A stretch of 13,330 bases of DNA. It comes from a virus (lineage: Duplodnaviria > Heunggongvirae > Uroviricota > Caudoviricetes). The position numbers and the translations under genes were made by a program. Every line of letters starts with the position of its first letter. The first letter of the stretch is position 1. The notes beneath the pieces are model-generated. The model was not told the DNA's origin and searched no databases. It worked only from the letters and a program-made list of their open reading frames with translations. Positions 1 to 13,330 of the stretch are shown here, in pieces. Location of the stretch: positions 1 to 13,330 of the IMG/VR virus record IMGVR_UViG_2547132278_000017. The stretch is one strand, 5' to 3'.

Positions 1-483
1 TCAATATTCCAGACAGACTCGCGGTTCATTTAAGCATCCATGCCCGCCCTGAACTCCGGGCACACCGTAAGTAAAATCAGCCACCCACAGCTGGTCAGGT
101 CGTTCTGCCACGAACTGACGGTTTACGCGGTCGCCTGCGGCAACGGCTTTCCGGCTGATGGTCGTACGGACCTTTTTACCCCGGAGAACACCGGCAAGTC
201 CCATAACCGCCATGAGACGTGCCACAGTGCATCTGGCCACTCTGATACCTTCCCGTAACAACTGACGCCAGACTTTACGCACACCGTATACCTTGTGATT
301 TTCATCGTATACGCGCTGTATCTCTTTCTTCAGCCAGTCATCGCGCTGCGCACGGGCACTGCGTTTATCCGGATGATGTCGCTGTTGCTGACAGTGGTAA
401 TACGTTGACGGGGCAATATGCAGTTCGCTGCATAGCGGTCCGACCCCGTACTGCTCACGCAGCTTATCCAGCAGTGGCATCAT
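1..483 (-). pseudogene. IS629 transposase OrfB, truncated to 160 aa (DDE catalytic domain lost)
   Basis: The ORF reads ...RPDQLWVADFTY, the start of the DDE domain in IS3-family OrfB, then diverges into GVPGVQGGHGCLNEPRVCLEY and stops at 1-3. IS3-family OrfB is normally about 290-300 aa, so the second Asp and the Glu of the catalytic triad are absent. Confidence 0.7.
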
Positions 484-806
484 TTTTTCCAGAGGCGGTC
501 GAACTCCGCCTTCGCAAAATAAGCGGAAGCCTGGCGAAGGATATCGTTACTGCGGCGCAGTTCACGATTTTCACGTTCCAGCTCTTTCAGACGCTGACGT
601 TCAGCGGTGGTGAGCCCTCCATCACCGCCCCCGGTATCCCGCTCATGCTGGCGAACCCAGACACGCAGAGTCTCCGGCGTACAGCCAATCTTTGGAGCAA
701 TGGAACAAATTGTCGCCCATTGTGAGTCATATTCGCTCTGACTTTCCAGAACCATACGGACTGCCCGTTGACGGACTTCGGGGGAAAAACGAGTATTTTT
801 AGTCAT
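480..806 (-). CDS. IS629 transposase OrfA (108 aa, helix-turn-helix plus leucine-zipper region)
   Basis: The 108-aa [26 protein letters not shown]...[29 protein letters not shown] matches my recollection of IS629/IS1203 OrfA. It lies about 55 bp inside the IS terminus, and its stop overlaps the next ORF. Confidence 0.9.
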
Positions 807-860
807 CCTGTTTACCTCTTTCTCAGGAAGTTTAGTCTCCAGGATTCCCGGGGCGGTTCA

Positions 861-1418
861 GCTCAACCCCATATAGTTGTAACACTTGAGCCAAACCCTT
901 GGGCCGCTTTTTACTTTGATATTAACATTGCTAATACAGGGAACGCACCTGCCTATAATGTTGAGGTTGTGTTTGATCCTCCACTAGTAAATGCGGAGCA
1001 TAGAGAAAAAAGTGAGATTCCGTTTAGTAAGGTAAGCGTGTTAAAAAATGGGCAATCACTTACCAGCAATCTCTGTAAGTATGAACAAATCAAAGATCAA
1101 ATTTATAATATTAATATAAGCTGGGCAAGCAAACCTAAATCAAACGATAGAGAAACAAATGAATATGTGTATGACATGGCGACATTTGAAGGAATAAGTT
1201 ATCTAGGAGCGAGAAGCCCATTGACGCAAATTGCAGAACAAATTAAAGGTATAAGAGAGGATTGGAAACCTATTGCACAAGGAGCTAAAAAAGTAAAAGC
1301 AGACGTATATACTTCAAGCGATAGAAACGAAGAACGCACGTATCTGCAAGAGCAACACGATTTGGCAATAAAAAGGAGAGATGAGAAAAGAGAAAAAAGA
1401 TTAGAGTCTGGTGAATAA
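861..1418 (+). pseudogene. 3' fragment (185 codons) of an unknown AT-rich gene interrupted by the IS629 insertion
   Basis: The reading frame is open from the first base after the IS terminus (861) to the stop at 1418. There is no in-frame ATG with a ribosome-binding site until very late (MATFEG...), so the N-terminal part must lie beyond the IS. The C-terminus is lysine/glutamate-rich. No recognisable motif. Confidence 0.5.
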
Positions 1419-1466
1419 TTTTAAAGGGAGTGGGTAACTAACCCACTCGTAACTATAAACCTGTAA

Positions 1467-2291
1467 TTAATCACTTATTTTTGACAACAGATAATTACTG
1501 AACGCACTGCAAGTGACTAACATAAATTTAGCTTCAGCTAAGGTAGGATTTACATCTTCTTCTGTTAGCGCATGACGTATTCCACCCTGATCACTTGTAT
1601 AACCATAGAGCTGACTAAAAGCGCCTTTCATTGCAGAGTGTATATATCCTTTTTCCTCTATAGCTTTAAGACAAGCCCCCAAGGTTCCTTTATCATTGCC
1701 CGTGATTTTCCTGCATAAAGATTCAATTGCAGAGATAGACTCTTTAATCGAGTTTCTGTAGTCTGGCTGCTCTCTATCCGTCATTAGTTGTAACGCCCTT
1801 TCGAAATGGCTACGCGATGAATCAGTGCCATTATCAACTGCGTTCTGAACACTTTCAATTTCGTTATCATTTGAAATAGGAGTAATACAACCATTTATTA
1901 TGGTATAACCAACGCCATGCTTTTTAAAGATGGAATTGAGATGCTTCGATAGATTAATATATGAATTAGTTCTCTCAATGATGAACTCAATTAAATCATA
2001 TACCAAATACCATGCTTCCCCATATATATAATCTCGGATAGCAGTCAGCAACGTCTTATCACTTTTGTATCCACTTTCATAACGAGGAATATTATCCGCA
2101 GGTTGATTTAGATAATATATCCACACAGACTGCGCACATTTTGTTGCTGTAGCAGTTTGACGATTGTTAGTCCAAAGGAAAAGATATAAGCAATTCCACA
2201 ATGCCATGCGTGTATCAGAATTAAGATCATTCAGCTGGACATGCTCTCTAACGTCAACATGACCATACCTCACAGAAAATGGCTTTATCAT
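1467..2291 (-). CDS. Hypothetical 274-aa protein; possible AbiJ/HEPN-like abortive-infection-type C-terminal domain (tentative)
   Basis: Long ORF in an AT-rich segment with a Shine-Dalgarno-like AGGGGA 4-6 nt before the ATG at 2291. The C-terminal region ...SIKESISAIESLCRKITG...SAMKGAFSQLYGYTSDQGGIRHALTEEDV...AKFMLVTCSAFSNYL resembles, from memory only, HEPN-type domains of AbiJ-like proteins. Not verified by any search. Confidence 0.6.
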   Translation of the reverse strand: MIKPFSVRYGHVDVREHVQLNDLNSDTRMALWNCLYLFLWTNNRQTATATKCAQSVWIYYLNQPADNIPRYESGYKSDKTLLTAIRDYIYGEAWYLVYDLIEFIIERTNSYINLSKHLNSIFKKHGVGYTIINGCITPISNDNEIESVQNAVDNGTDSSRSHFERALQLMTDREQPDYRNSIKESISAIESLCRKITGNDKGTLGACLKAIEEKGYIHSAMKGAFSQLYGYTSDQGGIRHALTEEDVNPTLAEAKFMLVTCSAFSNYLLSKISD

Positions 2292-2825
2292 TCTTCCCCT
2301 GCCTGATTGTTATGTTCGTTTAAATTATGCAGTCTAAGTTTGATACAATCATATATTAAGCAATAGAATCCATAAAGCCCCGTTGGTGGTAAGACAACAA
2401 GCGGAGCCTCTTGCGACTTCATCAGGGTTATGTCAGTTAGTGAGGCTTATCAGGATGACCATGTACCCAAGGGGAGCGAGGCCGAACCGCTGGCAGAGCT
2501 TGCATATGGTCTGCAAGTACCGTGACCACCATAAACCTGTTTATCCCCTGCGGCGTCTCGCGACGGCGACAGAATGGGGGCATCGGGCTAAAATGCGCTG
2601 CACTAAAAGTTTTGGGATTGTTTAGAGACGGTGGCTACGTCATAGCTTTCAAGTTGAGTCAGTACGTGTTTGACGCTTGGAACGACACGCCGCTATGAGT
2701 TAACATCCCAATTACCACTATCAACCACAGCGGCTTTTTCAAGGGACATAACAGAGCATTTCTTACAGGCAAAAGAGACAGATTTAATCGTCTAACTAAC
2801 TGTATTGTAAGGAATTTAGTAACTT

Positions 2826-2848
2826 GGTGCGAAGGCCGGACTCAAACA
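2826..2848 (-). other. attR-like site: degenerate copy of a tRNA 3' end (T-arm/acceptor/CCA) marking the satellite's left boundary
   Basis: Minus-strand sequence TGTTTGAGTCCGGCCTTCGCACC(A) closely matches the 3' end of tRNA-Leu (leuX-type ...GGTTCGAGTCCGGCCTTCGGCACCA) with one substitution and one missing G. P4-type integrases integrate into tRNA 3' ends, and the int gene is at the opposite end in the compatible orientation. Confidence 0.55.
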
Positions 2849-3044
2849 TCAAAATAAGTTAATGATAAAAAACAAATAATAAAACACAACAATGAAATAT
2901 GCCCCCTTTTGTGCCCCCACTGTTTTTCTGACCAATCTATTTTCAGCCCATCAATAAATCGGAAAGTTAAATCATTTTTAATCAGTAAGTTTGGATCCGT
3001 AGCTCGGATCCAAACCAGTGCATCTTTTATCCACATAAAAAATT

Positions 3045-3340
3045 TTTTTTCGAAAGAACTGTTCACACTGTTCACCTTTCTGTTTTCTCCTTTTATTTCA
3101 GAGTGATAGGTGGTGAATAATGGGTGAAGGGTGAACATTCGATTCTTCACCTCCGGCATTCTGCCGATGTGACTCATACCGGTGATTAATCCTCCGCACT
3201 GAAATCACTCAGGAAGAAAAAAGTTTTTTTTGATTTGATTGTTCACACTGTTCACCTTTCGTTTTTCTCTTTTAATTTCAGTGTGATAACGGGTGAATAT
3301 ACGGTGAAGGGTGAACAGTGGATTGTTCACCTTCGGGGGA
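3045..3340. repeat. crr-like cis replication region: two direct repeats of about 115-120 bp (spaced 180 bp) each carrying several TGTTCACC-type iterons
   Basis: ctgttcacactgttcacctttc...tttcag(a/t)gtgata...ggtgaa...ggtgaagggtgaaca...ttcacc occurs at 3059-3160 and again at 3239-3340. The octamer TGTTCACC/GGTGAACA is the type I iteron bound by P4 alpha protein. The position immediately downstream of alpha matches P4 crr. Confidence 0.7.
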
Positions 3341-3350
3341 TATCTGGATA

Positions 3351-3374
3351 AAAAAAGACCGGCAGATGCCGGTC
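3351..3374 (-). terminator. Rho-independent terminator of the alpha operon
   Basis: On the minus strand, directly after the alpha stop: stem GACCGGC, loop AUCU, stem GCCGGUC, followed by six U then AU. Confidence 0.6.
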
Positions 3375-3381
3375 AGGTGGG

Positions 3382-5715
3382 TCAGGCTGTTGTAGGGTCG
3401 TCACATTTTGGCAGCCAGTCGCCGTAGCTTTCCTCTTTCAGCGTCAGGTTGGTCTGTATCCCCTGTTTGGTATGGCGCTTCTCGTAATTCAGCCCGTATT
3501 CCTTCAGCATCACCGGCAGCCCCAGCCCGAACATTTTCAGACTGAGTACATTCCGGTAGCCGTTTGCCTCCATGTAGGCCAGATAGGCGTGATAGAGGTA
3601 TTTACGGTAATTACGCGGGATGATACTGGCGTTCCCCATATACATGCCGCTGGTCTGCGGCAGGGTTTCCAGATAGCCGATAAAATCAAACGTCGGGTCG
3701 GCATCCCGTTTGATGTTCAGCGCCTCGTCTGAGTTCTGCTGGGACTGAAGCAGTGACCGGGCGAGCATCGGGTCGCTGAACTTCTGCATCAGGTGACGCA
3801 CGATGACCGCCAGCTCGCGGGTGATTTTGTCCTTAAGCTGCGGGTCGCGCTCCTGCGGGGCTATCTGTTCCGGGAAGTGAATAATCACCCGCCGGCGTGA
3901 CACGCCGCCGCTGCGGTCGGTGAAGCGCATCGGGTTATTGTTCACGGCCAGAATCACCGCCGGGATGTGCGTGGAGTACGCATCCCGGTATTTCGGGTCA
4001 ACGGACACCGCATCGCCGCCGGTGATGGCCTTGAGTCCGGCTCCGTCGCCGCTCCATTTTTCCTGGTCCGGCAGGCGTATCAGTGAGAAGCCAGTTAACG
4101 CGGCACGTTCACGCGGGGATTCCAGCGTCTCAATGGTGGCCGACGTGGCGTTATCCTCCCCGGCCAGCAGGGTGGCTATTTCGGCCATGATACTTTTGCC
4201 GCTGCCGCCGGGACCGGTCACCTCCAGAAAGAGCTGCCAGTCATAGCGGTTTGCCAGCACCATAAACAGTGCGGCCAGAATCACGTCGCGTTTTTCCGCA
4301 CGGCCACCGGCGGCACGGTCAAGCCAGCGCCAGAACGCGGGGGCGTGGGTTTCCAGCGTTTCCCCTTCCACCGGCGGGGTGAAATCCACATCGCACAGGG
4401 TGCGCATCCAGTGTGACGGACTGTGCGGGTGGAACGTGCCGTTCTGCGTGTCGAGCACGCCGTTACGAAAGCCAATCAGGCGGCGGGAGGGGGCTTCCTG
4501 CTGCGGAATAATCAGCTTCAGGGTGTCCACCACGGAGGCCACCTTCCCGGAGGAGAACGGCGCGCGCAGACGCTGAAACAGCCCGGCCACATCCCGGGCA
4601 AAGTCCTGTGGCGGCAGCACCTTCCAGACACCATTTTCATAGCGGGACAGAAGCTGGCCGTTGGCATCGACCGCGAGCGCCTCGCCGTAATGCTCATAGA
4701 TACGCATGGCCTTTTCGCTGGTACTCATGGCGGAAAACTCCGCTTCGCTCATGGTGTCGAACGGGCTTTCAGCCGGGGGCCGGATGGCATCATAAATGGC
4801 CTTACGGGTGGCTTCCCCGCCGTACTGCGTGAAGGCATCATTCCAGTCACCGAAGACCGGCGGCAGGGCAACAACACCTTCACACGCATCTGCGGCTGCG
4901 GCGGCTTTTTTCTGGCCGTCACCGCTGAGGTCACGGTCAGCAGCAAGGACAATCTGACAGGCCGGATGCTTCTGCCGGGCAAGGCTGGCCAGAGAAAGGA
5001 GATTCACGGAAGAAAGCGCCACCATCACCGTTTCACCGGTCAGGTGATGCACGGTAAGTGCGGTCGCGTATCCCTCCGCTATCCACAGACGTTTTCCGGC
5101 CTGATTCTGTCCTTCAAGGATGTGACAGGTGCCCCTGACCTGCCCGCCTTTCAGGGTGCGCTTACGGCCGTCAGCACTGATTAACTGAAGGTTAACCAGT
5201 TCGCCGCTGTCGTCATACAGTGGCACCACAAGGTCACCGGCGCGCCAGCTCACGCCACCGGCTCTGTGTGTGCCGGTCAGCATCCGGCATTCCCGGCCGG
5301 GAAAGCCCTTGCGGGTCAGGTAGGCGTTACCGGTTCCGGGACGGGTTTTCGCCATCAGGGTTTGTGCCAGTGCGGCGGCGTTCTTCCGGGCAGCGTCTGT
5401 TTCAGCACCGGCGGCAGCCGTCACTGCCGGGTCAGCCGGGGGCAGGCTGCCGGTCACGGCAGCCACCTTTGCGGCCGCATCGGACGGGGAAACACCAAAC
5501 ACCTTTTCAACCAGTTTCAGGCCGTCACCGGCACCGCACTGATTGCAGTACCAGGTGCCGCGCCCCTCCCTGTCATCAAAACGGAAGCGGTCACTCCCGC
5601 CACAGACCGGACAGGGCTGATGACGGTTCTTCAGCACCTGAATCCCCAGCGCCGGGAGAATACGCGGCCAGTGGCCGAGTGCATGGCTGACGGTGGCGGT
5701 TACGTTCATTTTCAT
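3382..5715 (-). CDS. alpha: P4-type alpha protein: bifunctional DNA primase / SF3 helicase / origin-binding protein (777 aa)
   Basis: N-terminal zinc-binding motif CPVCGG...YCNQCG, Walker A GPGGSGKS in the helicase region, AAGGAGA ribosome-binding site 8 nt before the ATG. The length of 777 aa equals P4 alpha. Iterons recognised by alpha are present at crr and ori. Confidence 0.95.
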   Translation of the reverse strand: MKMNVTATVSHALGHWPRILPALGIQVLKNRHQPCPVCGGSDRFRFDDREGRGTWYCNQCGAGDGLKLVEKVFGVSPSDAAAKVAAVTGSLPPADPAVTAAAGAETDAARKNAAALAQTLMAKTRPGTGNAYLTRKGFPGRECRMLTGTHRAGGVSWRAGDLVVPLYDDSGELVNLQLISADGRKRTLKGGQVRGTCHILEGQNQAGKRLWIAEGYATALTVHHLTGETVMVALSSVNLLSLASLARQKHPACQIVLAADRDLSGDGQKKAAAAADACEGVVALPPVFGDWNDAFTQYGGEATRKAIYDAIRPPAESPFDTMSEAEFSAMSTSEKAMRIYEHYGEALAVDANGQLLSRYENGVWKVLPPQDFARDVAGLFQRLRAPFSSGKVASVVDTLKLIIPQQEAPSRRLIGFRNGVLDTQNGTFHPHSPSHWMRTLCDVDFTPPVEGETLETHAPAFWRWLDRAAGGRAEKRDVILAALFMVLANRYDWQLFLEVTGPGGSGKSIMAEIATLLAGEDNATSATIETLESPRERAALTGFSLIRLPDQEKWSGDGAGLKAITGGDAVSVDPKYRDAYSTHIPAVILAVNNNPMRFTDRSGGVSRRRVIIHFPEQIAPQERDPQLKDKITRELAVIVRHLMQKFSDPMLARSLLQSQQNSDEALNIKRDADPTFDFIGYLETLPQTSGMYMGNASIIPRNYRKYLYHAYLAYMEANGYRNVLSLKMFGLGLPVMLKEYGLNYEKRHTKQGIQTNLTLKEESYGDWLPKCDDPTTA

Positions 5716-5729
5716 GGTGTTGTTCTCCT

Positions 5730-6050
5730 TCAGTGCAGTACCGGCGCTTTTATGTGACGGGCACAGAGTTCATCCATCACAACCAGCCCGAGAAAGGACA
5801 GCGACGGCGCGGCCTTCAGGGGGCCGGATTCCATTAAATCTTCCAGCAGGGCACAGGCTATCTGACGCCCTTTTTCCTCACCGTGCTGGCGCAGATAAAA
5901 GCCTTCCAGCTCAGCGGCGATGGCCGCCTCCAGTGACTCAAGGGTGAGATGCGGGTAGCGGTGCTGACGTTCGCACACGGTCAGCCAGGCACAGGCGACA
6001 GCGCGACGGTAAAGGGCAGCGCGTAAGACGGGCGGTAAGGGTGTTTTCAT
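5730..6050 (-). CDS. cnr: Cnr-like copy-number regulator (106 aa), immediately upstream of alpha
   Basis: Position and size match the P4 cnr gene preceding alpha in the left operon. Assignment rests on synteny and length, not on a motif. Confidence 0.7.
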
Positions 6051-6185
6051 TTGTTTTCCTCCCTGTGACAGATGACTGCATTCCGTGCCGGTTGCATTAA
6101 CTGATAAGGCATATCTGCGTCTCCTGAAGACGTGCGTATCCCTGCGCGAATACGCACATTTAATTTTTCGGGTGTCGTTTTTTAA

Positions 6186-6641
6186 TTACAGATAATTGCG
6201 GTAACTGTTATCCGGGGTGGTTTCCGGGTCAGGCTCCGTGCGGGGAATTTCCCGCCATTCCCGCGCCACCGGTGCTGCCCGGCTGACCGGAACAGTGTCC
6301 TGCGGGTAAATATCCAGATATTTTTCCCGCCATTTCTGTAATTCCGGGTCTCCGGCCATTTCTTTCAGTACCGCATGCCGGTTTACGGGGCTGCGTTTAA
6401 ACAGGTCAGGACGGTCACAGGTAAATTCCCGCAGAAAACGCCCCAGCGGGATGTCTGTGGTGCGTCCGTCAGCGAGGATACGCACAAGGATACTGAATTT
6501 ACGGCGGTACGGGTTCCAGACAATGTCCGGGCAGCGGTACGGCATTTCCCACGGAATACCGTCTTCCAGAATGCCGACCACGGCCACATCGGGAAAACCG
6601 GCAGAACGGTAAATCTCACCGGGCTGGGGAAAATCAAACAT
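6186..6641 (-). CDS. P4 orf151-like protein (151 aa), function unknown
   Basis: 151 codons in the position of P4 orf151 between eps and cnr. The start overlaps the stop of the upstream gene by 8 nt (operon coupling). Confidence 0.8.
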   Translation of the reverse strand: MFDFPQPGEIYRSAGFPDVAVVGILEDGIPWEMPYRCPDIVWNPYRRKFSILVRILADGRTTDIPLGRFLREFTCDRPDLFKRSPVNRHAVLKEMAGDPELQKWREKYLDIYPQDTVPVSRAAPVAREWREIPRTEPDPETTPDNSYRNYL

Positions 6642-6921
6642 GCGTCCTGTCTCCCCGGTCTTTCTGCTGGGCGAGAAAATCGCGGCACAGGCCTTTGGCT
6701 TTCAGCTCATTCAGCACAAAATCAATATCTTCATTCAGGTAGCTGAAAATATGCGGAATGTAGAGCTGATGCAGGCCGGAGAGTTCACGGTGAATCAAAT
6801 CACCCCCAACAAACCGGGATACGGCGCTGGCGCGGTTGAGCTTATGGTAAGCCTCAATGCTGAGGTGTTCACGGGCGTCATGACGTGCTGAGACGGTCTG
6901 AGGGGCTTTTTTATTACGCAC
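6634..6921 (-). CDS. eps: Epsilon-like protein (95 aa, GTG start), predicted helper-prophage derepressor
   Basis: The tracked 177-aa ORF has no ribosome-binding site at its ATG. An internal GTG at 6921 is preceded by GGAGGT with a 5-nt spacer and gives a 95-aa product in the P4 eps position (upstream of orf151, downstream of the immunity region). Start choice is an inference. Confidence 0.6.
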
Positions 6922-7189
6922 GGGACACCTCCACCACCGGCAGACGGGCAGCAAGGGAGAGCACATAGTCTCGGACAAGGGAACGGCGGGCACTGCGTTC
7001 ATCACCGGCGACGGTGCGAAGCATACAGATACGGGGATGACGGTCTGCACGACGGACAGCCGCAAACACAAAGACAAATTCAGGGTGTGAGGGGGTAAGG
7101 GTTGTAGCCATAAGGCAGCCTCCTTCGAGTAGCAAATAACTGCTATCGCCGGAGTTTCCACGCTCAATGGCGATAGCCCAGACGGGGGT

Positions 7190-7265
7190 GGAAATACCGG
7201 CCTCGAAGAATACCGGCCAGCCCGGAGGCTGCCCCGCCTGAGCTACCATTGACTCTGCGGCATAA
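7190..7265 (-). ncRNA. cI: Candidate CI-like immunity RNA region (seqB) with complementary seqA-like (about 7385-7400) and seqC-like (7113-7133) targets
   Basis: The plus-strand segment 7113-7133 (aggcagcctccttcgagtagc) is complementary to two blocks within 7199-7233 (ggcctcgaag...ggaggctgcc), split by about 15 nt. A second copy of the ccttcgag core sits at 7391-7399, just downstream of the putative early promoter. The arrangement mirrors P4 seqA/seqB/seqC, but boundaries are not defined. Confidence 0.35.
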
Positions 7266-7444
7266 TGAGCGGACGCGGGCAGGATGCACGGAATGCCATC
7301 TGCACGACTGACCACACACCACACCATAATCTGGCGCTCTGTGGCGTTGATTGCGACACAAAAAAAGACGCATGGCGCGTCATATGTCGCCTTCGAGTTA
7401 CACGGGTTTCCACGCCCGGCTGCCGATTTTGCGACAGCGGAAAA

Positions 7445-7474
7445 ACTATATCCGCAAATGCCGGAAAAAGGCAA
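7445..7474 (-). promoter_or_regulatory. Candidate P_LE-like early promoter (-35 TTGCCT, 18-nt spacer, -10 TATAGT) for the leftward immunity/replication operon
   Basis: Minus-strand hexamers at 7474-7469 and 7450-7445, between the vis stop and the seqA-like element. Confidence 0.35.
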
Positions 7475-7509
7475 GCCAGAAAAAGGGAGTTTTTGCAGAG
7501 CGGGCATCA

Positions 7510-7776
7510 TCATGCGTCGTACCCCCGTTTGCGTCCGGCAATGCGCCCGGCCATCCATGCGGTGACTTCAGAGTGCAGCCAGGCCACATTTTTACCGCCA
7601 AGACTCACCTGTGGCGGAAATTCCCCCTTACGGATGAGTTCATAGATGGTCGAGCGTGACAGGCCGCACAGGTGCATCACTTCCGGCAGACGTAAAAAAC
7701 GCTCCTGCGTGATGTCCGGCAGCGGCATCAGTGGCGTCACAGGGGCGGGAGACGGGGAAGAAAAAACAGCTTGCAT
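7510..7776 (-). CDS. vis: AlpA/Vis-family transcriptional regulator and excision factor (88 aa; alternative internal start would give 72 aa)
   Basis: AlpA-family helix-turn-helix signature ...[47 protein letters not shown].... GAGGT ribosome-binding site 6 nt before the ATG at 7776. Position upstream of the early operon matches P4 vis. Confidence 0.8.
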
Positions 7777-7878
7777 CGGGCTACCTCGTTAATGTCCATA
7801 CAGCACCGGATAAGTCCGTCCGGCTTCGGGTAGCGCTTTATTTTGTGAATATTTTCAGCAGACGCAACAGGGGGAATT

Positions 7879-7896
7879 TGTTCCGGCAGCCTTACA
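7879..7896 (-). promoter_or_regulatory. TGT-N12-ACA dyad, candidate Delta/Ogr-responsive late promoter (P_LL-like) driving vis leftward
   Basis: tgt tccggcagcctt aca. Centred about 55 bp upstream of a plausible leftward transcription start, which would itself be about 55 nt before the vis start. The pattern alone is expected by chance a few times in 13 kb, so position is the main support. Confidence 0.3.
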
Positions 7897-8054
7897 ATGG
7901 CTGTGTGTTTTTTATCCATCCGGACTGGAAGGGTCTCAAAGGGTTCTGAAGGACCTGGAATTTTTCATAGTGAAATGCAAATTGTTTTTTCTTATTTATT
8001 TCAGTGAATTAATAAAAATAAACAGTAATAAACAGCATAAAAAGCCCATCAACG

Positions 8055-8160
8055 GGTGAACAGTGGTGAACAGACGGTGAACAGTCATTACTGCGATTGT
8101 TCACCCTTTAACTTACTGTATTACTTATCTTTTTTCTTAAGGTGAACAGAGGTGAACAGT
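8055..8160. repeat. ori-like cluster of six type I iterons (GGTGAACAG/TGTTCACC) with an AT-rich spacer
   Basis: Iterons at 8056-8063, 8065-8073, 8076-8084 (direct), 8098-8105 (inverted), 8141-8149 and 8151-8159 (direct). The AT-rich stretch 8107-8140 lies between them, and an AT-rich region sits upstream (7960-8050). Six iterons about 4.8 kb from crr fits what I recall of P4 ori. Confidence 0.65.
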
Positions 8161-8237
8161 AAAATATAAAAAAACAAACAGTAAGCCGGTTTTTCCTGCG
8201 ACCTTTTCCTGGCTTGCCGGTCTGAGGATGAGTCTCC

Positions 8238-8255
8238 TGTGTCAGGGCTGGCACA
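8238..8255 (+). promoter_or_regulatory. TGT-N12-ACA dyad, candidate Delta/Ogr-activated late promoter (Psid-like) for sid-delta-psu
   Basis: tgt gtcagggctggc aca, centred about 55 bp upstream of a predicted start near 8300, followed by a GAGGAG ribosome-binding site and the sid ATG at 8328. Confidence 0.4.
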
Positions 8256-8327
8256 TCTGCAATGCGTCGTGTTGTTGTCCGGTGTACGTCACAATTTTCT
8301 CAACCTGAAGTGACGAGGAGCCGGAAA

Positions 8328-9062
8328 ATGTCTGACAACACCATCCCTGAATATCTGCAACCCGCGCTGGCACAACTGGAAAAGGCCAGAGCCGCCCACC
8401 TTGAGAACGCCCGCCTGATGGATGAGACCGTCACGGCCATTGAACGGGCAGAGCAGGAAAAAAATGCGCTGGCGCAGGCCGACGGAAACGACGCTGACGA
8501 CTGGCGCACGGCCTTTCGTGCAGCCGGTGGTGTCCTGAGCGACGAGCTGAAACAGCGCCACATTGAGCGCGTGGCACGCCGGGAGCTGGTACAGGAATAT
8601 GACAATCTGGCCGTGGTGCTGAATTTCGAACGTGAACGCCTGAAAGGGGCGTGTGACAGCACGGCCACCGCCTACCGGAAGGCACATCATCACCTGCTGA
8701 GTCTGTATGCAGAGCATGAGCTGGAACACGCCCTGAATGAAACCTGTGAGGCGCTTGTCCGGGCAATGCATCTGAGCATTCTGGTACAGGAAAATCCGCT
8801 CGCCAACACCACCGGGCATCAGGGCTACGTCGCACCCGATAAAGCTGTCATGCAGCAGGTGAAATCATCGCTGGAACAGAAAATAAAACAGATGCAAATC
8901 AGCCTCACCGGCGAGCCGGTTCTCCGGCTGACCGGACTGTCAGCGGCAACACTCCCACACATGGATTATGAGGTGGCAGGCACACCGGCACAGCGCAAGG
9001 TGTGGCAGGACAAAATAGACCAGCAGGGAGCAGTGCTTAAGGCCAGAGGACTGCTGTCATGA
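8328..9062 (+). CDS. sid: Sid, external scaffold / capsid size determination protein (244 aa)
   Basis: Start MSDNTIPEY with GAGGAG 7 nt upstream. 244 aa equals P4 Sid. Helical, Ala/Glu/Leu-rich composition. First gene of the rightward late operon, stop overlapping the delta start (ATGA). Confidence 0.9.
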   Translation: MSDNTIPEYLQPALAQLEKARAAHLENARLMDETVTAIERAEQEKNALAQADGNDADDWRTAFRAAGGVLSDELKQRHIERVARRELVQEYDNLAVVLNFERERLKGACDSTATAYRKAHHHLLSLYAEHELEHALNETCEALVRAMHLSILVQENPLANTTGHQGYVAPDKAVMQQVKSSLEQKIKQMQISLTGEPVLRLTGLSAATLPHMDYEVAGTPAQRKVWQDKIDQQGAVLKARGLLS

Positions 9063-9559
9063 TTTACTGCCCGTCGTGTGGACATGTTGCTCACACCCGT
9101 CGCGCACATTTCATGGACGATGGCACCAAGATAATGATTGCACAGTGCCGGAATATTTATTGCTCTGCGACATTTGAAGCGAGTGAAAGCTTTTTCTCTG
9201 ACTGTAAAGATTCAGGAATGGAATACATTTCAGGCAAACAGAGATACCGCGATTCACTGACGTCAGCCTCCGGTAGCATGAAACGCCCGAAAAGAATGCT
9301 TGTTACCGGATATTGTTGTCGGAGATGTAAAGGCCTTGCACTGTCAAGAACATCGCGGCGTCTGTCTCAGGAAGTCACCGAGCGTTTTTATGTGTGCACG
9401 GATCCGGGCTGTGGTCTGGTGTTTAAAACGCTTCAGACCATCAACCGTTTCATTGTCCGCCCGGTCACGCCGGACGAACTGGCAGAACGCCTGCATGAAA
9501 AACAGGAACTGCCGCCAGTACGCTTAAAAACACAATCATATTCGCTGCGTCTGGAATGA
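9059..9559 (+). CDS. delta: Delta, late transcription activator with two tandem Ogr-type zinc fingers (166 aa)
   Basis: Two Cys4 modules (CPSCG...C...YC and CRRCKG...C...C). 166 aa equals P4 Delta. Confidence 0.9.
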   Translation: MIYCPSCGHVAHTRRAHFMDDGTKIMIAQCRNIYCSATFEASESFFSDCKDSGMEYISGKQRYRDSLTSASGSMKRPKRMLVTGYCCRRCKGLALSRTSRRLSQEVTERFYVCTDPGCGLVFKTLQTINRFIVRPVTPDELAERLHEKQELPPVRLKTQSYSLRLE

Positions 9560-9632
9560 GGGCTGCCGGTTAACACCGGCCGTCGCCGCACACCGTATTT
9601 TTATTCTTCAGCATGATGAGAAAGAGATAACG

Positions 9633-10205
9633 ATGGAAAGCACAGCCTTACAGCAGGCCTTTGACACCTGTCAGAATAACAAAGCAGCATGGCTGCAACG
9701 CAAAAATGAGCTGGCAGCGGCCGAACAGGAATATCTGCGGCTTCTGTCAGGAGAAGGCAGAAATGTCAGCCGCCTGGACGAATTACGCAATATTATCGAA
9801 GTCAGAAAATGGCAGGTGAATCAGGCCGCCGGTCGTTATATTCGTTCGCATGAAGCCGTTCAGCACATCAGCATCCGCGACCGGCTGAATGATTTTATGC
9901 AGCAGCACGGCACAGTACTGGCGGCCGCACTGGCACCGGAGCTGATGGGCTACAGTGAGCTGACGGCCATTGCCCGAAACTGTGCCATACAGCGTGCCAC
10001 AGATGCCCTGCGTGAAGCCCTTCTGTCCTGGCTTGCGAAGGGTGAAAAAATTAATTATTCCGCACAGGATAGCGACATTTTAACGACCATCGGATTCAGG
10101 CCTGACGTGGCTTCGGTGGATGACAGCCGTGAAAAATTCACCCCTGCGCAGAACATGATTTTTTCGCGTAAAAGTGCGCAACTGGCATCACGTCAGTCAG
10201 TGTAA
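9633..10205 (+). CDS. psu: Psu, polarity suppression / capsid decoration protein (190 aa)
   Basis: 190 aa equals P4 Psu. Last gene of the late operon, followed by a terminator-like hairpin and the cos site. Confidence 0.9.
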   Translation: MESTALQQAFDTCQNNKAAWLQRKNELAAAEQEYLRLLSGEGRNVSRLDELRNIIEVRKWQVNQAAGRYIRSHEAVQHISIRDRLNDFMQQHGTVLAAALAPELMGYSELTAIARNCAIQRATDALREALLSWLAKGEKINYSAQDSDILTTIGFRPDVASVDDSREKFTPAQNMIFSRKSAQLASRQSV

Positions 10206-10241
10206 AATTCCCCGAAAATCCGCCCGTTTTTACTGAAAAAA

Positions 10242-10270
10242 GCCATGCATCGATAAGGTGCATGGCTTTG
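10242..10270 (+). terminator. Candidate terminator after psu
   Basis: Hairpin GCCATGCA / TGCATGGC (10242-10266) followed by TTTG...TTTT. The U-tract is interrupted, so confidence is modest. Confidence 0.4.
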
Positions 10271-10369
10271 CATGCGTTTTCCTGCCTCATTTTCTGCAAA
10301 CCGCGCCATTCCCGGCGCGGTCTGAGCGTGTCAGTGCAACTGCATTAAAACCGCCCCGCAAAGCGGGCG

Positions 10370-10388
10370 GGCGAGGCGGGGAAAGCAC
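10370..10388. other. cos site: 19-nt cohesive-end sequence GGCGAGGCGGGGAAAGCAC of P2/P4-type phages
   Basis: Exact match to the cohesive-end sequence as I recall it, embedded in a GC-rich dyad (ccgccccgcaaagcgggcgg) between psu and the cargo operon, as in P4. Confidence 0.8.
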
Positions 10389-10633
10389 TGCGCGCCAATA
10401 GCAATGATGCACATTTATTTTCGAACCCTGAGTACATCATAGATGTATGCAGATAAACGATTATGGATCAGTGGCAAATGCATAGAGTAGGTTTGATGCT
10501 CTTACGAGGCATGCAGGTGAACAATACCAACACATAATATATTGAACCTACCCAAAAAAATGAGTAGGCATACTTGTTAAAAGTATATTTCTGATCAATG
10601 ATATAAAAATAAGCACTTTAGGCGAAAGAGAAC

Positions 10634-11575
10634 ATGAAGTTAAATTATTTTACTTACACAATAACCGACAATAGAAATCAAAAAGTTTATTTTGATAACA
10701 TTTCAGATATTATCAAAAATTTTTGTTTGCATAGAAAAAAATCTCTTTTTGAGAAAAACAAAGGGTTAAAAAGACTGTACCTAGCCATGCCCACCTCATT
10801 TGATGGCATATACTATTTGACCACGCCAGCAATTACTACAGCATTTAAAGCTGTAGATAGAGCAACTGGTGTAGTAAATGATTTGGCTTCTGTACTTGGT
10901 AAAGATAGTCTAGAGAAAGTTACTTACTTTTTTATTGACCCTAAACATTCAATAATCGGAGTAACCGAGGGTAAAGGTAATGCTGACATTGATGATTTGC
11001 AATTCTTCATTAACGAAATAATTAATCAAGATTTTCAATCACATATTTATACCTTCGAGCTTTGCACATTAAAAATAGAAATCAAATCTACATCGGCTAC
11101 AAAATTCAAACTCATCACTGAAGCACGAGTGAAGTTAAATAATGATTCTGTTGGGGATGTAATAAATGGATTGTTTGGCAAGGCCCCATCAGACAATATG
11201 GAAGTGCAAATTATCGTAAAAAGAAAAAATAGAAAAGAGAATGTGAAAGATTATATACAACCATTACTCTCAAGTTTATCTTCATCTGAAGATAAAGAGT
11301 ATGCAGAAATTTATTTCAGAGCCAAGGCAGATGAATTTCAATCAAATGTAAAAGAGTTTATTTTAGATAAGAATCAGAATATTTTTGATATAATAAACCC
11401 TCATCTCAAAGTAAAGATTGAAGATCAAATACTTGAAAAAAGATACAAAAACCAAGTTGTGATAAGTGAATTGAGTACATACGCACAAAATTTTACTGGA
11501 CGCATACATTCAGGTATTATTGATCCAGTGTGGAATGATCTAAAAACAGAAAGTTACCACAAAGCAAAAAGTTGA
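10634..11575 (+). CDS. Cargo protein A: 313-aa soluble protein of unknown function, AT-rich, candidate sensor or enzymatic component of a two-gene defence system
   Basis: Uninterrupted 313-codon ORF in an AT-rich island (roughly 25-30% GC by eye against about 55-60% for the backbone). No P-loop, HxH or other motif I can recognise. Its stop at 11573-11575 abuts the ribosome-binding site and start of the next gene. Confidence 0.8.
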   Translation: MKLNYFTYTITDNRNQKVYFDNISDIIKNFCLHRKKSLFEKNKGLKRLYLAMPTSFDGIYYLTTPAITTAFKAVDRATGVVNDLASVLGKDSLEKVTYFFIDPKHSIIGVTEGKGNADIDDLQFFINEIINQDFQSHIYTFELCTLKIEIKSTSATKFKLITEARVKLNNDSVGDVINGLFGKAPSDNMEVQIIVKRKNRKENVKDYIQPLLSSLSSSEDKEYAEIYFRAKADEFQSNVKEFILDKNQNIFDIINPHLKVKIEDQILEKRYKNQVVISELSTYAQNFTGRIHSGIIDPVWNDLKTESYHKAKS

Positions 11576-11583
11576 GGATGACA

Positions 11584-12039
11584 ATGCTTACTAACCAAGC
11601 AATAGTAAAAATTAATATAGCCACATGGGGTGTAAGCATTCTTACTGCTGTTATTTTTACTCTCATTGCGGTGTTTTGTGAAAACCAATACATAGAGATA
11701 GAACCTGAAGGTATAATTGGCATCGCTACACTATTAGGTACTTTTAGTTTCACAATGACAGGATTCATTGCTGCAATTGGTGCTTATATCATATCAGTGT
11801 CTGATAAAACTTCTTTTCTAAAGTGGCGACAGCAAGGATATATAAATATCTTCTACCATCTATATGGGCAGAGCATTGTTTTTTTATTGGTCACATTTTT
11901 ATTATGCATGGTGGCTATCATAATGCCATTTAATGTTGCATTGACAATTTTGAAATGTGGTTTATACATTCTCATCCTTAATATTATTCACATCATATTA
12001 ATAACTGTAATTACACTCGGTCAAATGCAGAAAAAATAA
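11584..12039 (+). CDS. Cargo protein B: 151-aa integral membrane protein with four predicted transmembrane helices, candidate membrane effector
   Basis: ATG at 11584 preceded by GAGGA with a 5-nt spacer (the tracked ORF starts at an unlikely TTG at 11572). Hydrophobic stretches at about residues 12-31, 44-72, 97-116 and 120-145, with a basic C-terminus (QMQKK). Translationally coupled to cargo A. Confidence 0.75.
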   Translation: MLTNQAIVKINIATWGVSILTAVIFTLIAVFCENQYIEIEPEGIIGIATLLGTFSFTMTGFIAAIGAYIISVSDKTSFLKWRQQGYINIFYHLYGQSIVFLLVTFLLCMVAIIMPFNVALTILKCGLYILILNIIHIILITVITLGQMQKK

Positions 12040-12061
12040 GTTAGCTTTTGACCGGTATTTC

Positions 12062-13330
12062 TTACTTTTTAACTTTAAGCATATTTGCAAACTCATATGG
12101 AGTGACTTGAGAATGCTTACTTATATCTAAATAATCCGCCCACCATTGAACCATAAGACGCCGCTCATCTAGATGTTCAGAAGTATGAATATAAGCTGCA
12201 CGAACATTATTGCGCTCTGAATGGCTCAGTTGGCGTTCTATAGCATCATCACTCCATAATCCTGACTCACCCAACGCACCACGTGCCATCGTCCTAAACC
12301 CATGCCCGCAGACTTCGGTTTTTGTGTCATATCCCATCGCACGCAATGCGCTATTCACTGTGTTTTCACTCATAACCTTAGTGGCGTCATGATCCCCCGG
12401 GAAAAGCACCTCTTTATCACCACTAATCTGCTTTAACTGGTCTAACAAATTCATCGCCTGACGACTCAGCGGAACGATATGCTCCTCTTTCATCTTCATA
12501 CCACGATACGAATAACGCACTCCCTTAATTTCTTTTCGTTTTGCAGGTATGCGCCATAGAGATTTATCGAAGTCGAATTCATCCCAACGCGCAAAACGCA
12601 ACTCACTGGAACGCACAAAAGTTAGTAAGGAAAGCTCAACCGCGATCCGTGTCATTACACGGCCACGATATGCAGCAAGACGTGCAAGAAACTCAGGGAA
12701 CCGGCTAGAGGGTAAAGCTGGGTAATGTCGCGCTTTGGTTGTCGATAGAGCACCAGCCATATCACTGGCTGGATTTGAGTCGATGTAATCGTTCTGTACT
12801 GCATAACGCATGATAGCCGTGACACGCTGCTGAAGTCGCTGCGCGACGTCATGCTTACCACTTGCATCAACTTTTTTAATCGGGGCTAACAGGTGGCTAG
12901 TCTTGAGCTGACGAATGTCGGACGAACCAATGTGAGGGAAGATATAAAGCTCAAGATAGCGAAGAACGCGCGAGCGATGGTCTTCACTCCAGCGTTTGTT
13001 ACTGGCGTGCCATTCACGAGCAATGGTTTCGAATGTATATGCCCCCGAATTCTCGGCCTGAGCTTCTTTCTGTTCGGCTTTTGGGTCAATGCCCTGCACT
13101 AGCAGTTTTTTAGCTTCATCGCGCTTTGCTCTTGCCTGAGCAAGCGTCACAGTAGGCCAAACACCAAAAGCGAGGCGATCCTCTTTTTTGTCTGAGGGGC
13201 GTCTGTATTTCATGCGCCAGTATTTTGACCCCTTAGGCGAAATCTCGAGATACAAACCGCCGCCGTCGGCCATTTTGTAGGTTTTTTCTTTTGGCTTTGC
13301 GGTCTCGACCTGTCTGGCTGTGAGCTTCAT
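12062..13330 (-). CDS. int: P4-type tyrosine integrase (422 aa); start codon at the window edge
   Basis: N-terminal arm-type domain (MKLTARQVETAKPKEKTYKMADGGGLYLEISPKGSKYWRMKYR...), C-terminal catalytic residues (HGFRTMARG, ...VRAAYIHT). The ATG occupies 13328-13330, so the true start could lie further upstream outside the window. Convergent with the cargo operon, separated by 22 bp. Confidence 0.88.
   Translation of the reverse strand: MKLTARQVETAKPKEKTYKMADGGGLYLEISPKGSKYWRMKYRRPSDKKEDRLAFGVWPTVTLAQARAKRDEAKKLLVQGIDPKAEQKEAQAENSGAYTFETIAREWHASNKRWSEDHRSRVLRYLELYIFPHIGSSDIRQLKTSHLLAPIKKVDASGKHDVAQRLQQRVTAIMRYAVQNDYIDSNPASDMAGALSTTKARHYPALPSSRFPEFLARLAAYRGRVMTRIAVELSLLTFVRSSELRFARWDEFDFDKSLWRIPAKRKEIKGVRYSYRGMKMKEEHIVPLSRQAMNLLDQLKQISGDKEVLFPGDHDATKVMSENTVNSALRAMGYDTKTEVCGHGFRTMARGALGESGLWSDDAIERQLSHSERNNVRAAYIHTSEHLDERRLMVQWWADYLDISKHSQVTPYEFANMLKVKK

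Follow-up and report, generated by a model that had tools for sequence, protein, structure and literature searches.

A P4-like satellite prophage at leuX whose attR core is one nucleotide shorter than the end of the tRNA gene

The stretch of DNA analysed here, hereafter called the window, consists of 13,330 nt of a caudovirus record (Caudoviricetes; IMG/VR record IMGVR_UViG_2547132278_000017, positions 1 to 13,330) and contains a P4-like satellite prophage, over which the reference phage P4 (X51522 / NC_001609) can be aligned from 2825 to 13330 with 96.9% identity wherever aligned (Table 1). The satellite comprises the alpha primase, the sid/delta/psu genes, a tyrosine integrase of the P4 type, and a region corresponding to the P4 CI immunity RNA together with its target region. 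Between psu and int, the genes found in reference P4 are replaced by an AT-rich block (GC about 0.30-0.34) encoding a RexAB-like pair, which represents a candidate satellite-borne abortive-infection system. Parts of the window are matched by thousands of E. coli genomes and, among the best matches listed, those restricted to the P4-like part (H3, H5-H15) end at 2824-2826.

Table 1. Coordinates of the features recognized in the window and around the attachment site.
Feature	Position	Strand	Remarks
Native leuX-downstream flank, B' side	866..2824		Contiguous with unoccupied leuX in 621 E. coli genomes
Hypothetical gene, PHROG 11802, function not assigned	768-1418	+	Adjoins the AbiJ-NTD4 gene
AbiJ-NTD4 gene	1467-2291	-	PADLOC candidate system PDC-S32, 6e-104
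P4-like satellite prophage	2825..13330, as far as the window reaches	-	attL and leuX beyond 13330
attR core GAGTCCGGCCTTCGCACCA	2825..2843	-	20-bp P4 attP/leuX core without one G
P arm of attR, element side	2844..3036	-	100% identity to the P4 attP left arm
TGTTT, P-arm bases	2844..2848	-	Same as P4 attP; T-loop resemblance partial (tRNA, GGTTC)
Two adjoining 12-nt attP arm sequence repeats, GTGGGGGCACAA and AAGGGGGCATAT	2897..2920	-	X51522 annotation mapped by alignment
P4 crr, cis replication region, 2 x 120-bp repeat	3037..3336	-	Adjoins attR; part of the satellite, not of att
alpha primase ORF, 777 aa	3382-5715		
Immunity RNA region	about 7166-7451	-	Rfam: C4 antisense RNA 76.7 bits, isrK 71.3, c4-a1b1 46.7
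RexAB-like cargo pair, between psu and int	10634-12039	+	RexA-like, Pfam PF15969, 5e-11; RexB-like, PADLOC, 6e-6
P4-type tyrosine integrase	12062-13330	-	Domains Arm-DNA-bind_3, Phage_int_M, Phage_integrase

The left limit of the flank that precedes the satellite is approximate (about 860) and was set at the point where the homology to insertion sequences ends. From position 1 to about 865, the window consists of a piece of an IS3-family element, made of orfA and the start of orfB, which is IS629-like according to its matches in Stx phages and which abuts the leuX flank. An ALIL frameshift pseudoknot is located within this piece at 409-525 (Rfam, 120 bits), and other strains exhibit different IS debris at the same point of contact with the flank.

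At the left end of the satellite, the minus strand carries a short fragment of a tRNA gene. An earlier reading, made from the sequence only, had located this fragment at 2826-2848, where the plus strand reads ggtgcgaaggccggactcaaaca and its reverse complement TGTTTGAGTCCGGCCTTCGCACC, and had recognized in it the 3' end of a tRNA-Leu gene. The sequence reads as described, and the gene can now be named as leuX, with the anticodon CAA; the site is real but the true core extends from 2825 to 2843, the terminal A at 2825 having been omitted and the five bases 2844-2848 having been added. The core spans the 3' strand of the T stem, the 3' strand of the acceptor stem, the discriminator and the CCA. 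Compared with the 20-bp core common to P4 attP and to the 3' end of leuX, it agrees at 19 of the 20 positions, the sole change being the loss of one G, without substitutions. The annotated P4 attP core is GAGTCCGGCCTTCGGCACCA (X05947, X51522), and the 3' end of the leuX tRNA-Leu(CAA) reads ...GGTTCGAGTCCGGCCTTCGGCACCA / ...GCCGGTTCGAGTCCGGCCTTCGGCACCA (locus L001 18602-18686), which equals the core of the window except for one G. The 19-mer GAGTCCGGCCTTCGCACCA occurs a single time in the window, on the minus strand at 2825-2843, and 200 dinucleotide-preserving shuffles of the window gave no match to it, 2 mismatches being permitted. A search performed with the 20-mer and allowing mismatches alone misses the site, because the difference consists of an indel. 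At 2825-2843 the tRNA finders report no complete cloverleaf, and over the whole window ARAGORN identifies 0 tRNA genes and an Rfam scan gives no tRNA match up to an E-value of 1, so that the copy is a fragment rather than a functional tRNA gene.

The anatomy of the junction was resolved by a three-way alignment of the window, the left arm of P4 attP and the sequence located downstream of leuX in E. coli C. When read on the tRNA strand, positions 3360..2844 of the window match the P4 attP left arm without a difference (about 540 nt to the right of the core), and the sequence from 2824 downwards is that which occurs right after leuX in E. coli C, the junction falling exactly at 2824/2825. The bases TGTTT (2848-2844), previously taken for a degenerate T loop, belong to the P4 arm. 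The heptamer GGGGGCA, at 2900-2906 and 2912-2918, lies within the two 12-nt arm repeats, which are presumed to be arm-type Int binding sites. The element-side P arm, with its arm-type repeats, is contiguous with the P4 genes. A 111-aa ORF (2842-3177, minus strand) covers the P arm of attR, its TGA stop codon straddling the junction between arm and core. In some RefSeq records (WP_077250636) this ORF is labelled 'integrase'; it gave no Pfam or PHROG match, and the name is probably an annotation artefact.

The empty site was searched for in 5426 complete E. coli genomes using as query a chimera of leuX (85 nt) and window 2824..2400, which was recovered with 100% identity and coverage in 621 of them, including E. 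coli C, ATCC 11775 and S88. The host-side arm B' of the window is thus the very sequence that follows an unoccupied leuX. In E. coli C, leuX is directly followed by the AbiJ-NTD4 gene, the hypothetical gene, IS debris and then fimH, without any integrase. Since the AT-rich genes to the left of the site directly follow leuX in this strain, they belong to the host flank and not to the satellite, and correspond to a small integrase-less island remnant. The sequence-only reading had attributed these genes either to the flank or to a neighbouring island, and had suggested the comparison with an empty site, which turned out as anticipated.

The window ends at the ATG of int, and attL and leuX are therefore visible in relatives only. 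In E. coli 5735, E47, 504237 and KMi029, leuX lies 164 nt past the start of int, on the same strand, with ahr and yjgR coming next. Over its last 431 nt, which include the 5' end of int, the window is 100% identical to E. coli 5735, and at the locus in that strain the element is spanned by a single direct repeat, the core pair, whose copies lie 10,635 nt apart. A full tRNA gene adjoining int, predicted from the window alone, is accordingly found in the four closest E. coli relatives, and these relatives show neither an int devoid of a neighbouring tRNA nor an element delimited by other repeats, the two situations named beforehand as incompatible with the assignment. The alignment with P4 over 2825..13330 also agrees with the proposal that the fragment lies on the strand of int, at the far end of the element. 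Because int adjoins attL, the site in the window is attR (POB') by the lambda convention. In E. coli TOK-001 (NZ_AP018395.1 4597853-4598010; H62), the junction at the int-proximal arm is 1 nt shorter than elsewhere and no tRNA-Leu is annotated under it; this site is either a junction inside a tandem array or an attL with a single-G core.

With a probability of about 0.93, a P4-like satellite prophage was inserted by its tyrosine integrase at the 3' end of the leuX tRNA-Leu(CAA) gene, minus-strand positions 2825-2843 being the core of its attR (POB'), and the single G of this core is not a product of decay. The attR boundary proposed for the satellite from the sequence therefore holds, with the P4 arm on one side and the leuX-downstream sequence on the other.

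The single-G core is widely distributed. The five E. coli loci compared, i.e., the window and all 4 fetched relatives, share the form CTTCG-CACCA at attR, whereas the tRNA copy (attL) always displays GG (CTTCGGCACCA), the tRNA of the window itself lying beyond 13330. Four types of downstream flank occur among these loci: the native one, two different second-integrase islands, and one located after a tandem TTCGCACC expansion. In E. coli KMi029 (L005 about 3975-4018), two further tandem copies of TTCGCACC come after the attR core GAGTCCGGCCTTCGCACC and form a local 8-nt expansion on the crossover side of the core. Exact-pattern scans of IMG/VR yielded 36 single-G stretches versus 1 GG stretch without tRNA sequence in front of it. 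In a scan of one genome per species, at least 120 single-G stretches were found, nearly all of them in Enterobacterales and in many genera (among the matches listed, Erwinia, Pantoea, Serratia, Yersinia, Pectobacterium, Proteus, Providencia, Photorhabdus, Xenorhabdus, Salmonella, Kosakonia and others). Upstream of these stretches the arms vary widely, and the downstream flanks mostly consist of native terminator-like sequences, the flank being at some loci the int-proximal arm of a second element. The junctions of tandem arrays are mostly single-G too. At the distal end of leuX islands, a single-G core is hence the rule, to which the attP of reference P4, with GG, and the IMG/VR element L010 are exceptions. 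Both states even coexist within one arm lineage (L010 vs L030; L168 vs L138), so that now and then the exchange, or a conversion, must take place on the opposite side of the indel. In addition, the acceptor 3' strand of a full-length tRNA-Leu(CAA) from Pantoea eucrina (L101 2010-2093) is single-G, and a longer displaced fragment from Salmonella enterica subsp. arizonae (L054 about 546-602), which extends from the anticodon arm to the 3' end, is single-G as well. These two sequences may be scars of an exchange that occurred on the 'wrong' side of the indel.

The copy differs by 1 nt from both the tRNA and the reference P4 attP, and such a difference could result from decay after integration, the G having been mutated away in a prophage that became locked in and lost its excision, in a process of domestication. 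Indels in the recombinase core can block recombination by lambda-type integrases, a fact that counts in favour of decay, and the Islander work names such fragments 'damaged' (PMC4383910). Decay is nevertheless improbable: the identical deletion occurs in the window and in 4/4 fetched E. coli relatives in front of four different downstream flanks, single-G outnumbers GG 36 to 1 in IMG/VR, the at least 120 stretches found nearly all in Enterobacterales are attached to unrelated island arms, and the rest of the element is intact, being 97-100% identical to P4. It is implausible that the same nucleotide of a GG dinucleotide was lost several times independently, and the recurrence observed across unrelated islands is too high for post-integration decay, which was rejected. 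For this reason 'degenerate', as the copy had been called, is the wrong word for what is a single conserved 1-nt deletion and not random decay.

The assignment of the copy to the left neighbour, as one end of an older, AbiJ-NTD4-bearing island at leuX, deserves mention since leuX is an island hotspot, other strains harbor a second integrase island directly to the left of the core, and the left region is AT-rich with IS debris. Its probability is nevertheless very low, as the left sequence abuts an intact leuX in 621 genomes with no extra core copy, and the copy therefore occurs only where the P4-like element is present; moreover, the sequence preceding the core on its 5' side coincides with the P4 arm at each base, and the left region contains no integrase. 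A chance match, or what is left of a tRNA gene that was duplicated or pseudogenised independently of mobile DNA, might be envisaged in view of the shortness of the tRNA resemblance (19-23 nt), but its probability is negligible. The shuffles gave zero matches, ARAGORN and Rfam found no tRNA body, and the breakpoints are exactly those of P4 on one side and of the leuX-downstream homology on the other; the empty-site matches and the three-way alignment refute this interpretation.

As to the way in which the satellite would have reached leuX as a P4-type element, natural P4-type attP sites are predicted to carry the single-G core. Integration would have joined the body of the tRNA to the int-proximal arm, to give an attL (B-left + P-right) with an intact tRNA just outside the window. 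At the opposite end, the core copy brought in by the element became fused to what had been the sequence downstream of leuX, to give attR (P-left + B-right). The blocks shared by attL and attR consist of the 6-bp GCACCA to the right of the indel and of the 14-bp GAGTCCGGCCTTCG to the left. Since the tRNA exhibits GG and attR a single G, strand exchange would occur 3' of the indel, within the last 6 bp GCACCA common to both sites, and the tRNA would keep its GG and attR its single G through cycles of integration and excision. These comparisons would place the crossover in the terminal 6 bp of the gene, or in a still shorter stretch. A single-G core in the natural attP of this integrase family would be the parsimonious reading of the sequences, and the element may be competent for excision. 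The mostly single-G state of the tandem-array junctions agrees with the prediction of this model. A crossover in the T loop or in the 14-bp block, combined with a GG attP, was also considered and rejected, as it predicts a GG attR or a single-G tRNA, the opposite of what is observed. The 6-bp identity block counts against the model, being at the low end for the overlap regions of tyrosine recombinases. So do the GG of the reference P4 attP and the rare converse cases, such as the single-G tRNA-Leu of Pantoea eucrina and the arm lineages that contain both forms.

An attP reconstructed from the P arm and the core of the window and the P' arm of 5735 gave a partial, int-side match only in the plasmid collection, matched reference P4 (GG) only among the phage records, and gave no match with at least 80% coverage in the 5426 E. 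coli genomes. A metagenome scan for P-core-P' junctions retrieved 5 of them (4 single-G, 1 GG), all in contigs of 17-349 kb, which probably are tandem arrays. Searches of E. coli genomes, plasmids, phage records and metagenomes thus yielded no free, circular single-G attP.

The 20-bp core of P4 attP and attR at leuX is, presumably, that reported by Pierson & Kahn 1987. The element of the window resembles phage P4 at leuX by its target tRNA, its core, its identical P arm with two arm repeats and an adjoining crr, its gene order (alpha ... int) and the position of int beside the tRNA. It differs from P4 by a core of 19 bp instead of 20, with one G fewer, and by its int and its psu-int cargo, the RexAB-like pair occurring in place of the P4 genes; compared with the window, the attP/int record X05947 shows about 90% identity over the stretches covered. 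Other islands of leuX, e.g., KpLE2 of K-12 and PAI II of the uropathogenic strain 536, occupy the same hotspot; they have P4-family integrases, and their short direct repeats stem from the 3' end of leuX. The tandem stacking of islands at leuX finds its counterpart in the second islands of the relatives; however, KpLE2 and PAI II are large cargo islands, whereas the element of the window is a satellite of about 10.6 kb with a P4 module for replication, immunity and capsid size. For some integrase subfamilies, the sublocation within the tRNA gene is reportedly asymmetric, at its 3' end. The GG of the tRNA and the single G of attR, from which the crossover is here placed on comparative data, would similarly put it at the 3' end of the gene.

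A full-text literature search found the single-G core string in no paper and the GG string once, in PMC6177240, where the P4 attachment core GAGTCCGGCCTTCGGCACCA is quoted. The deletion as such has, on the other hand, been encountered before: the Islander work (Hudson, Lau & Williams 2015, PMC4383910) describes displaced tDNA fragments in which a small deletion lies about 3 bp upstream of the discriminator; it classes 148 of 3919 islands as 'with damage' and, in its passage on damage, cites Williams 2003 (J Bacteriol 185:1059). In the window, the G is missing from ...CTTCGGC-A-CCA, and as the discriminator of leuX is the A of this sequence, the lost G fits the Islander description, i.e., a deletion located about 3 bp upstream of the discriminator in a displaced 3' fragment, the regenerated tRNA being intact.

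It is tempting, though still doubtful, to regard the single-G core as the functional, selected state of the natural attP of the P4 family rather than as 'damage', a state that would confine the exchange to GCACCA and disfavour attR, with its single G, as a target of newcomers. Should this be true, incoming islands would always stack beside an intact tRNA, the GG found in the core of the laboratory reference P4 would represent a derived, atypical form, and an occasional exchange in the 14-bp block would lead to damaged leuX genes such as that of Pantoea eucrina.

The feature itself is a standard attR of a P4-like satellite at leuX and, as such, is already known, as is the small deletion upstream of the discriminator, which is recorded in the Islander literature (PMC4383910); the current understanding of tRNA-targeted integration remains unchanged. 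The left boundary of the satellite is now fixed at 2824/2825, and the AbiJ-NTD4 gene (PDC-S32) and its neighbour therefore belong to the host flank of leuX, the RexAB-like pair to the satellite, a distinction useful for cataloguing the defence genes that travel with P4-like satellites. The conserved single-G core offers a practical marker, as searches for exact repeats of the 20-bp reference core miss most of the natural attR sites.
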